Below are positions 5,562 to 8,156 of a DNA stretch of 31,092 nucleotides, in pieces. The stretch lies in assembly GCA_029856435.1 (NCBI GenBank), contig JAHQXB010000026.1, positions 1 to 31,092 on the forward strand, given 5' to 3'. The first letter of the stretch is position 1. The number at the start of each line of letters is the position of its first letter. This DNA comes from Candidatus Jordarchaeia archaeon (lineage in GTDB: Archaea; Asgardarchaeota; Jordiarchaeia; Jordiarchaeales; Jordiarchaeaceae). Under the pieces are notes generated by a model. It searched no databases. It was not told the DNA's origin and saw only the letters and a list, made by a program, of their open reading frames with translations. The position numbers and the translations under genes are program-made.

Positions 5562-7046
5562 CGATGGGTAAACAAGAAGGTTTTTTAATGTGTTTGAATA
5601 ATCAATTATAAATTTTGGGCATATAAAAAGTTTTTAGCGCATTTTCGGATTTGGGCCTTTTTAAGGAACAATTTCTCTAGGAAAAGAGGTCCCGAATCCC
5701 TGCAGAAATAAGCCCTATTAACCATATGTTTAAACTACACTCCTATATAGCCCATATGTTTAACCGATATTCCCGTTGTGTAGTTTTTTGTTCTCTTCTA
5801 TGATTTCTTTTAAGGGCTTCCTTCGGGTTTTTGTTTACCCTCCTTCGTAACCGCTCGCCAAACTTCCTCTCCCTCCTCTCGCTCCCTCAGTATGCCACAG
5901 TAGGTCTCACACCCAACACTAGCTACAGCCTCACTTAGTTGCATCCAACCCCAACTTATCCGGGTACCCGCAGAGGAAGTTGAAGATGTGAATGGCGTCT
6001 GGGCGTGGAAAAGAATCCACCCATCCATAACGTTGCACCCGGTGATCCTAAGCCAGAGGCTCCGAAGCCCCCTAATGAGGTTCTCCAGATCGTTGTTTGT
6101 TCTCGGTACCCTCTCATCGTCATAGCAGTGGAAAAGCCCCTTCCACACAGATTCAACCTGCTCCACCACCTTCCTATACCTCACATCGCTCTCACCCTCC
6201 CTCCTAAAGAGTTCCATACACTCCCTAACTCGGGCTTCAACCTCAGCCCGAGAGCCTCCCCGTTCAAGAACACGCCGGAGTCTCTGGAAATCCCGGTAAT
6301 CATCCTTTAACTCCCTTTAACGAGGCTTCTAATCTTTTTTGTCCTTCACACTCTCAGCGAGGATTCCCTCTATCTCAAGTAGGGCATGGCGGTATTCGTC
6401 GTCCTGTATGTGGTCTGCCAGACATTTCCTCACGACTGTTCGCACCTGTTTCATCCGTTCGTATAGCCTCACGTAGTAGAGGTCATAGGGGAAGTCGTCG
6501 CAGGTCACTTCAAGTGCGTAGGCTACATGCTTGAGGATTTCCTTCTTCTTTTCCTGCTGAAAACAGTAGTCTACAAGAGTTTTCTGACCCCCCTGCCGAC
6601 CCATTTGAGTCCTGGAAAAAGGGGGATAGATAAATCTTTTTTCGGGAAAAGAAGGCTTTTTATTCCTTTTTTTGTCCCTCACCATCACCTGGTTGGCGGA
6701 GAAAATTTTTCGGAATTGCCACGAAGCCACCTCCTAGCTTTAGTTTTCACCCCCTCACCCTTCATGATTCCACCGAGCTGGCTGTAGCTTTGTCCCATAA
6801 GTTCCTTCCCCATATTCCTCAGGAGGTGGTACTGGCAGTACTGGTGCTTTACCCCGGGTAGAAGCTCCTCCACCACCTCCACTATGGAGGGCTGCATGTC
6901 GCTGACCACTGCCAAGGGTTTGCCGAACATCCCTAGGACCCTCTTGAGGATGGGCTTCAAATCATCTGAGGAGTTGCTCGTCGCAGCTTCTGTGTAGAGT
7001 ACGGTGCCTGAGAGTGCGTCTCGGAAGATGTAGAGGGGGTACCCGC

Positions 7047-7230
7047 GAACTTGTTAAAAAAATAAGTCTTTTTCGCGGTTTGGTTGCAATTTCTTCAAGG
7101 ATTGGTGGGGTGTGTGTTGCAAAACCTTCCTCTATAATATATTTCTGCCTTGGAATTCCCAGAATCACCAGTTTACACCTGGTGGAAAAGCCAACCAGAA
7201 CCCCTGAAACAACAATTTTTTAACAAGTTC
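7047..7230. mobile_element. MITE family B (184 bp) inserted in the transposase gene
   Basis: 15-bp perfect TIR GAACTTGTTAAAAAA / TTTTTTAACAAGTTC. Perfect 9-bp TSD GGTACCCGC (7038-7046, 7231-7239). A second copy lies inverted at 30825-31009. Confidence 0.93.
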
Positions 7231-7538
7231 GGTACCCGCGGTAGCTGTTGGTTCCGTCGATGCCGAGGATGTAGCCTCCACGCTCCTTAATGCTCCTCTT
7301 TATGGCTTCTATGTTTTCTTCGTGCCAGCCTCGCACCAAGGCTTCAACAAAGTTGAGCAGGTGGGTTATGTTCCCCTTGCTCATAATTATTCCCCGGGAA
7401 CGCAAGTCCTTGAGGACCTCCTCGTGAGTTCTCCTTACCTCAAACTTCAGGTGGGCTATGTGTACTATAACGTCGAGACCGAAGGTTTTGCGCCAGAAGG
7501 TTGCCGCTTGTAGTGCCTCTGACCGGAAGCTCCAGTCC

Positions 7539-7648
7539 CTTGCCACACACTCCGGGTTGCTGCACCTGAGCACCATTATAACAATTATGTTTGTTGCGTT
7601 AAAGTATTCCAGCTTGCCACACACTCCGGGTTGCTGCACCTGAGCACC
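7539..7648. repeat. Perfect 36-bp direct repeat flanking a 38-bp AT-rich insert
   Basis: CTTGCCACACACTCCGGGTTGCTGCACCTGAGCACC at 7539-7574 and 7613-7648. Insert ATTATAACAATTATGTTTGTTGCGTTAAAGTATTCCAG at 7575-7612. Confidence 0.95.
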
Positions 7649-8156
7649 CTCTCCAGGGCGTAGATTTCTTCCTCAAGCGTTACCAGCCTCCTGGGGTTGC
7701 AGTTGTACTTCTTCACAAGCCTCGACCCACAAAGGGGGTATGCATCAAAACACGTCTTACATTCAACAGCTTACTATTTCATAAAATGAACATCGATAAA
7801 CACCTACTATATAGGAGTTTTGTTTAAACATATGATGCTTAAAAAACAAAACCCAAAACCAACCAACAGGCGATTTGCAATAAAAACCTTTTACGCCCTA
7901 AATTTTAACATAGGTTTTATTTCTAACTGTTTTACTATAGACTTTCCATTTAATTTTTTCCTTTTCGCTTCCAGGGAACATGGTTTTTTTCCGCTTTTTT
8001 GGGAAAGAAGCCTTAAATAACCCCGGTCAAGGATAGGTTTAGGAAAAAATTAATGAGGTTCTGGTTTCTATTCTCGCTTTTTCTATTTTTTTCAAGTATT
8101 TTCTCAAAATTCTTAGATAAAATCTTTTTTATATATGTTAGTTCTTGATATTAATT

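Follow-up and report, generated by a model that had tools for sequence, protein, structure and literature searches.

Non-canonical integration by Cas1-Cas2, giving rise to neo-CRISPR units, was described by Nivala, Shipman and Church (2018, Nat Microbiol 3:310; as cited in PMC6698737, bioRxiv 10.1101/148544 and PMC7054753). In the parts of that work relayed by the citing papers, the experiments used E. coli over-producing the type I-E Cas1-Cas2, with 28-bp repeats, and the cases reported from the wild were circumstantial and came from two species. Off-target integration by the Cas1-Cas2 of Pyrococcus furiosus was observed in a plasmid-based assay of a system with 30-bp repeats, and the off-target sites used in vitro resembled the repeat and the leader end (PMC6698737).

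We compared with these systems a repeat-insert-repeat unit located inside a decayed transposase gene of an archaeal genome. Like the units of Nivala et al. 2018, as they appear in the citing papers, this unit combines an insert of spacer length and a repeat-length duplication of non-CRISPR DNA with the presence of an integrase in the genome. Unlike them, again as far as the citing papers present them, the case is natural and comes from an uncultured Asgard archaeon carrying a type I-A-like locus; its ruler measures 36-37 bp, where that of E. coli works with 28-bp repeats, and it is one of about eleven units falling into two length classes. Like the in vitro sites of P. furiosus (PMC6698737), the target starts with the 7 nt of a leader-repeat junction, whereas it differs from the plasmid assay in being a chromosomal scar whose target determinant is deduced from one site. 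The mechanism is not new. Off-target integration has been demonstrated before, in vitro and in E. coli cells that over-express the proteins; the archaeal lineage and the two-class pattern are somewhat new aspects.

The window analysed here is the entire 31-kb contig C115 (31,092 nt) of a genome bin (G000) that comprises 181 contigs and 3.54 Mb, from a group of organisms named Jordarchaeia/Freyarchaeota (Asgard) in public records. A repeat search of the window returned a single direct-repeat family at this position (n = 1), with copies of 36 nt that are 100% identical and a start-to-start distance of 74 (Table 1). This agreed with the original prediction, made from the letters of the window, of a perfect 36-bp duplication (7539-7574 and 7613-7648) around a 38-bp AT-rich insert. 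The GC content was 64% for the 36-bp repeat versus 26% for the insert, and neither the 36-mer nor the 38-mer had another occurrence in the whole 3.54-Mb assembly. Outside the repeat copies the flanks were identical at only 3 of 14 positions per side, so that the 36-bp block is sharply bounded, and the chance of an exact 36-bp repeat at a spacing of 74 was estimated to be far below 1e-6 per genome. When one 36-bp copy and the insert were removed, an uninterrupted frame, ...ERVLRCSNPECVARDWSFRS..., was recovered; the gain of 74 bp is not divisible by 3, and both the frameshift and its reversal by this deletion were thus found on the sequence as had been predicted.

Table 1. Features of the window at and around the duplicated target, and the two length classes of comparable units in the genome (given as contig:position)
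Feature	Coordinates	Strand	Remarks
Degenerate insertion sequence	5723..7834	-	Terminal inverted repeats of about 28 nt; DNA about 80-86% identical to that of intact copies L016-L018
Remaining transposase pieces	5767..7047	-	Residues 157-306 with two in-frame stops, plus a second reading frame
MITE	7046..7231	.	About 185 bp; 16-nt terminal inverted repeats CGAACTTGTTAAAAAA; 7-bp target duplication GTACCCG
Transposase piece, residues 46-159	7232..7573	-	tblastn against an intact copy
Pseudo-repeat copy 1 (duplicated 36-bp target)	7539..7574	+	Exact repeat; begins CTTGC, with CC directly before
Spacer-like 38-bp insert	7575..7612	+	26% GC; genome-unique; without terminal inverted repeats
Copy 2 of the duplicated 36-bp target	7613..7648	+	Exact repeat of 7539-7574
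Transposase N-terminal piece (residues 5-56 of intact homologue)	7615..7770	-	tblastn against an intact copy; homologues P0001-P0007; zinc-ribbon-like; ends in the putative scar
36-37-bp duplications, 38-bp inserts, periods 74-75	Window locus, C63:172, C100:87		n = 3
About 30-bp duplications (25-33), inserts 35-42, periods 64-68	C49:9073, C90:1357, C91:9573, C123:7787, C68:595, C138:25359, C38:~11863, C19:~4903		n = 8

Two simple origins of the unit were considered and rejected. A simple tandem duplication would not account for the 38 bp between the copies, which match neither flank. Insertion of a DDE transposon or MITE shares with the unit a direct target duplication on both sides of the inserted DNA, and the same gene provides an example for comparison: its MITE has a 7-bp duplication and 16-nt inverted repeats, whereas the 38-bp insert has a 36-bp duplication, shows no terminal inverted repeats when these are sought within 7575-7612, and has no other copy in the genome.

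Comparison of the window with intact copies of the insertion sequence provided the empty site. In a multiple alignment, the intact copies L016 and L017, which come from two other samples and encode a protein 82% identical, contained the 36-mer once. When the DNA of L016 and L017 was aligned with the window, three blocks were obtained: a stretch of about 35 nt of the intact copy aligns with both copies of the 36-mer, and one of about 10 nt aligns twice at the MITE. All homologous proteins spanning the site (5/5) read without interruption through ...LERVL(M/R)CSNPEC.ARDWSF.... The unduplicated allele that the original prediction expected in other copies of the element was thus present in the DNA of L016 and L017 and in five proteins. 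Since the 36-mer is single in the intact alleles, the unit corresponds to a 38-bp insertion with a 36-bp target duplication and was not inherited as part of the element.

The possibility that the element carries a genuine mini-array was also considered. Virus- or element-borne mini-CRISPR arrays, reportedly described by Medvedeva et al. in 2019, are said to use the genuine repeat sequence of the host. The unit resembles them in that one or two spacers lie outside the main arrays, but what is repeated in it is local coding sequence, found only once in intact alleles, and this explanation was rejected because the intact copies of the element are without any such unit. A truncated copy of the insertion sequence was observed in the relative G003 (L008, G003:C218, 1493-1663); it ends inside the duplicated 36-mer and abuts CGAATCTATCGCC..., a sequence also found on contig C100 of the window's genome. 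This truncated copy was judged uninformative.

The element that carries the unit is degenerate. The insertion sequence has about 50% GC versus about 37% in its flanks (35-40% in the neighbourhood), is present in a single copy in the genome and is nested within another short repeat family. A member of that second family is split by the insertion at window positions 5612-5721 and 7843-7899, and uninterrupted copies of the family were observed on C152, C104, C174, C139 and other contigs. The unit sits antisense within the transposase gene, and the piece encoding residues 46-159 is in a different frame from the N-terminal piece because of the 74-bp gain. The MITE splits the transposase between ...SYRGY and PLYIFRD...; about 20 copies of it, with 82-93% identity, occur across the genome, and related copies are present in relatives of the genus. 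The second reading frame of the transposase contains a C-terminal frameshift near 5880. The claim that the insertion knocked out a mobile element was not borne out by this analysis: the gene also has the MITE, two in-frame stops and the C-terminal frameshift, any of which may have preceded the 74-bp gain, so that inactivation cannot be credited to the latter.

The transposase showed only sub-threshold resemblance to the IS256/MULE, ISH6 and IS66 models, and its clear relatives are unnamed proteins of Thermoproteota and Freyarchaeota bins. The intact copy L016:446-2201 and proteins P0002-P0007 present the transposase as two frames, of 306 and 247 residues, and several homologues have a lysine-rich end encoded by a run of A (GEKKKKKG); the two frames may reflect a programmed frameshift site or simply a split family.

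We then compared the geometry of the unit with the CRISPR systems of the genome and of its genus. The assembly contains one cas1 and one cas2, at C51:4202-5525 (Pfam E-values of 4.5e-81 and 2.6e-17), adjoined by cas4; together with cas7 (Csa2), cas5, cas3' and an HD cas3'', they make up a type I-A-like set. The integrase genes required by the original prediction are thus present, and exactly one cas1 was found in each of the six genus genomes. The Cas1 of the closed genus genome G005 (CP147778.1) shares 87% identity with the C51 protein. Two arrays of a 37-bp repeat flank its gene, the only cas1 of that genome, and together contain 141 spacers of 35-42 bp, with a mode of 38. In the bin L040, the Cas1 is 93% identical and adjoins an array of 37-bp repeats with periods of 72-77. 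The 37-bp repeat family, which begins CTTGCAAAAG..., was present in 4/5 other genus genomes.

The results of this comparison showed that the 36-bp duplication and 38-bp insert agree within 1 bp with the 37-bp repeat and the 38-bp spacer mode of the genus. The length of the insert falls within the spacer ranges of both G005 (35-42) and the array on C173 of the assembly (35-41), and its GC content of 26% is within the values spanned by real spacers (0.14-0.64), 12% of which are at or below 0.27. However, the sole array in the assembly, which fills C173 (5453 bp), is made up of 81 copies of a 30-bp repeat separated by spacers of 35-41 bp and, taken alone, would speak against a 36-bp ruler. Searches of this assembly for an array of 37-bp repeats and for the leader of the G005 arrays gave no match, so that the agreement between duplication and repeat length is drawn from the arrays beside the orthologous Cas1 proteins (87% and 93% identical) of relatives. 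Arrays are often lost from metagenome bins, and from those of the relatives we infer that this genome's own arrays would have 37-bp repeats. An array geometry within 1 bp of the predicted 36 and about 38 bp was thus seen in relatives of the genus, whereas the assembly itself provided only the 30-bp array.

The 30-bp array was considered as a candidate for the array of the host. Its repeat was found on 107 public metagenome contigs of varied sources, where it adjoins a type III locus that has a separate Cas1-Cas2 pair; the Cas1 of this pair is 30% identical to that of C51. A search of this assembly for an orthologue of this type III-associated Cas1 was negative. Given this wide occurrence of the repeat in unrelated metagenomes, next to a type III locus whose Cas1 differs, contig C173 may be mis-binned or may belong to a second system that was left unassembled.

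Comparison of the insertion site with the leader-repeat junctions of the genus showed a second point of agreement. The leaders of both G005 arrays and of the L040 array end in ...ATATAACC directly ahead of the repeat start CTTGC, while on the + strand of the window ...GTCC stands directly ahead of CTTGC; the 7 nt CC-CTTGC (the hyphen marks the boundary) are identical to the conserved junction. With both strands counted, the genome contains this 7-mer 267 times, and a boundary would coincide with it by chance, in either orientation, with a probability of about 7.5e-5 in a test that was chosen post hoc. The motif agrees with the target preference published for in vitro integration. Real spacers, when examined for a bias at their ends, gave nothing usable. 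Beyond this motif the likeness is lost: the pseudo-repeat and the 37-bp repeat of the genus are identical at 11/36 positions, and the resemblance is confined to the first 5 nt.

The poor resemblance bears on the question of whether the unit is a working mini-CRISPR, or neo-CRISPR, yielding a guide RNA, and not an inert scar. The architecture of one repeat-spacer-repeat unit and the birth of neo-CRISPRs by off-target integration that has been proposed in the literature are compatible with such a function, but the pseudo-repeat departs from the genus repeat after the first 5 nt, the single spacer is accompanied by no sign of later growth, and the unit lies antisense within a dead gene and is not preceded by an AT-rich region resembling a leader. 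We consider a working array very unlikely.

We scanned the genome for further units of the same kind; the original prediction had proposed such a scan for 36-bp duplications around inserts of 35-42 bp. A strict scan took in exact repeats of 24 bp or more that are present in two copies, have sharp boundaries and show periods of 40-200. It gave 11 such repeats, and in 8 of them the period was 65-75 and the insert 35-42 bp; a second scan, in which up to two mismatches were allowed, added three near-exact units. About ten such units, more than expected, were thus found in addition to that of the window, and the units fall into two classes (Table 1). The units at C63:172-283 and C100:87-198 have a 37-bp duplication, a 38-bp insert and a period of 75, and both are located in coding-like DNA. 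The C63 unit was observed within a dead coding region, and the C100 unit, whose copies differ at one base, within a transposase-like fragment beside a CRISPR-associated gene with a DxTHG motif. The class of about 30 bp is mostly intergenic; five or six of its eight units end in AC, as does the 30-bp repeat, and the last 7 nt of the C123 unit, TTGAGAC, are those of the 30-bp repeat in the proper orientation. The periods of the two classes equal the two array periods associated with the genome and the genus.

In the closed relative G005, of which 80% was covered by the strict scan, one clean 38/38 unit was found outside the arrays (C1:117642-117755), together with a two-repeat remnant of a genuine-looking 30-bp repeat. 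When empty sites of the other units of the window's genome were sought, a one-copy homologue was obtained for that of C68 only; for most of the others, the intergenic DNA has diverged too far from that of the closed relative. No cognate cas1 for the 30-bp class was found in the assembly, so that the genes present there do not account for the genome-wide pattern in full.

These results allowed us to weigh two further explanations of the window locus. An assembly artefact would consist of a chimeric path in the metagenome assembly, and the genome is indeed a 181-contig bin with an estimated contamination of 5.7%. However, for an assembler to output repeat-insert-repeat, reads carrying both junctions are required, and the contig is coherent around the element, with families of host repeats that flank and interrupt the insertion sequence. 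An artefact is extremely improbable because the same geometry recurs, in unrelated sequences, on ten other contigs and is also found in the closed genome of the genus.

The main rival to off-target integration is another process of insertion with duplication, unrelated to CRISPR: the repair of a staggered double-strand break with captured filler DNA, template switching during replication at a microhomology, or an undescribed integrase whose additions are of roughly constant length. The pentamer TCCAG at the 3' end of the insert recurs 3 bp ahead of copy 1, in the left flank, as had been noted in the original prediction, and provides such a microhomology. The lengths of the 30-bp class partly compensate each other (25+42, 28+37 and 33+35, with sums of 64-68), and this class is the one for which the assembly gave no cognate cas1. 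On the other hand, a donor for the insert was found neither nearby nor elsewhere in the genome, where the best match is 30/38 on another contig, and template switching at the window locus is unlikely. Neither break repair nor template switching predicts inserts confined to 35-42 bp at eleven loci, two period classes equal to two CRISPR array periods, a boundary that copies the leader-repeat junction, or the TTGAGAC end common to the C123 unit and the 30-bp repeat. We regard this whole group of explanations as unlikely.

The unit is probably the scar of a natural off-target (ectopic) full-site spacer integration by the host Cas1-Cas2(-Cas4), and it is from the target duplication, the cas1-cas2 genes, the genus geometry, the junction motif and the recurrence of the units that we infer Cas1-Cas2 as the agent. 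The predicted ectopic acquisition is thus partly supported; a protospacer and a 37-bp-repeat array in the assembly were not found. During such an event, a 38-bp prespacer would have been attached to both strands of the transposase DNA, with 36 bp between the points of attachment. Of the two attacks, one would probably have been directed to the site mimicking the leader-repeat junction CC-CTTGC, and the other would have been placed by the integrase ruler for a 37-bp repeat; gap repair would then have doubled the 36 bp and left one copy on each side of the insert. The outcome would be a one-spacer pseudo-array of coding DNA, with a gain of 74 bp and one more frameshift, in a recipient gene that may have been decaying already or only afterwards.

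When the off-target integration proposed for the window is extended to the other units, the genome can tentatively be read as a natural record of repeated off-target integration, in which a ruler class of about 30 bp, with 8 loci, and one of 36-37 bp, with 3 loci, track two different array types. Under the same tentative reading, about 7 nt of the junction might be enough to capture the integrase in vivo, and the units might serve as raw material for new arrays. The window locus is useful as it brings together an empty-site allele, an integrase that is the orthologue of one with a known array type, a junction-like motif and sister units. It offers a natural read-out of the ruler and the target preference of an integrase in an uncultured Asgard archaeon, and it is relevant to what CRISPR adaptation costs a genome and to the possible birth of new arrays.

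The source of the insert was searched for in several collections. The original prediction had proposed a search for the 38-mer and for a PAM; neither a protospacer nor a PAM was found, as the 38-mer gave no exact match among viral contigs and its 28-nt core gave none among metagenome and genome contigs. The absence of a protospacer from databases is weak evidence. The insert cores of four other units had no matches among viral contigs, and comparison of the inserts with all the arrays that were fetched gave nothing meaningful. The inserts are also without a good match elsewhere in the genome, with the exception of that of the window, which matches C110:448-485 at 30/38 positions, the next best match anywhere being 25/38. 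This C110 sequence precedes a ribonucleotide reductase gene by 15 nt; that gene adjoins one for a family B DNA polymerase. The protospacer may have come from a related replicon with a homologous promoter region.
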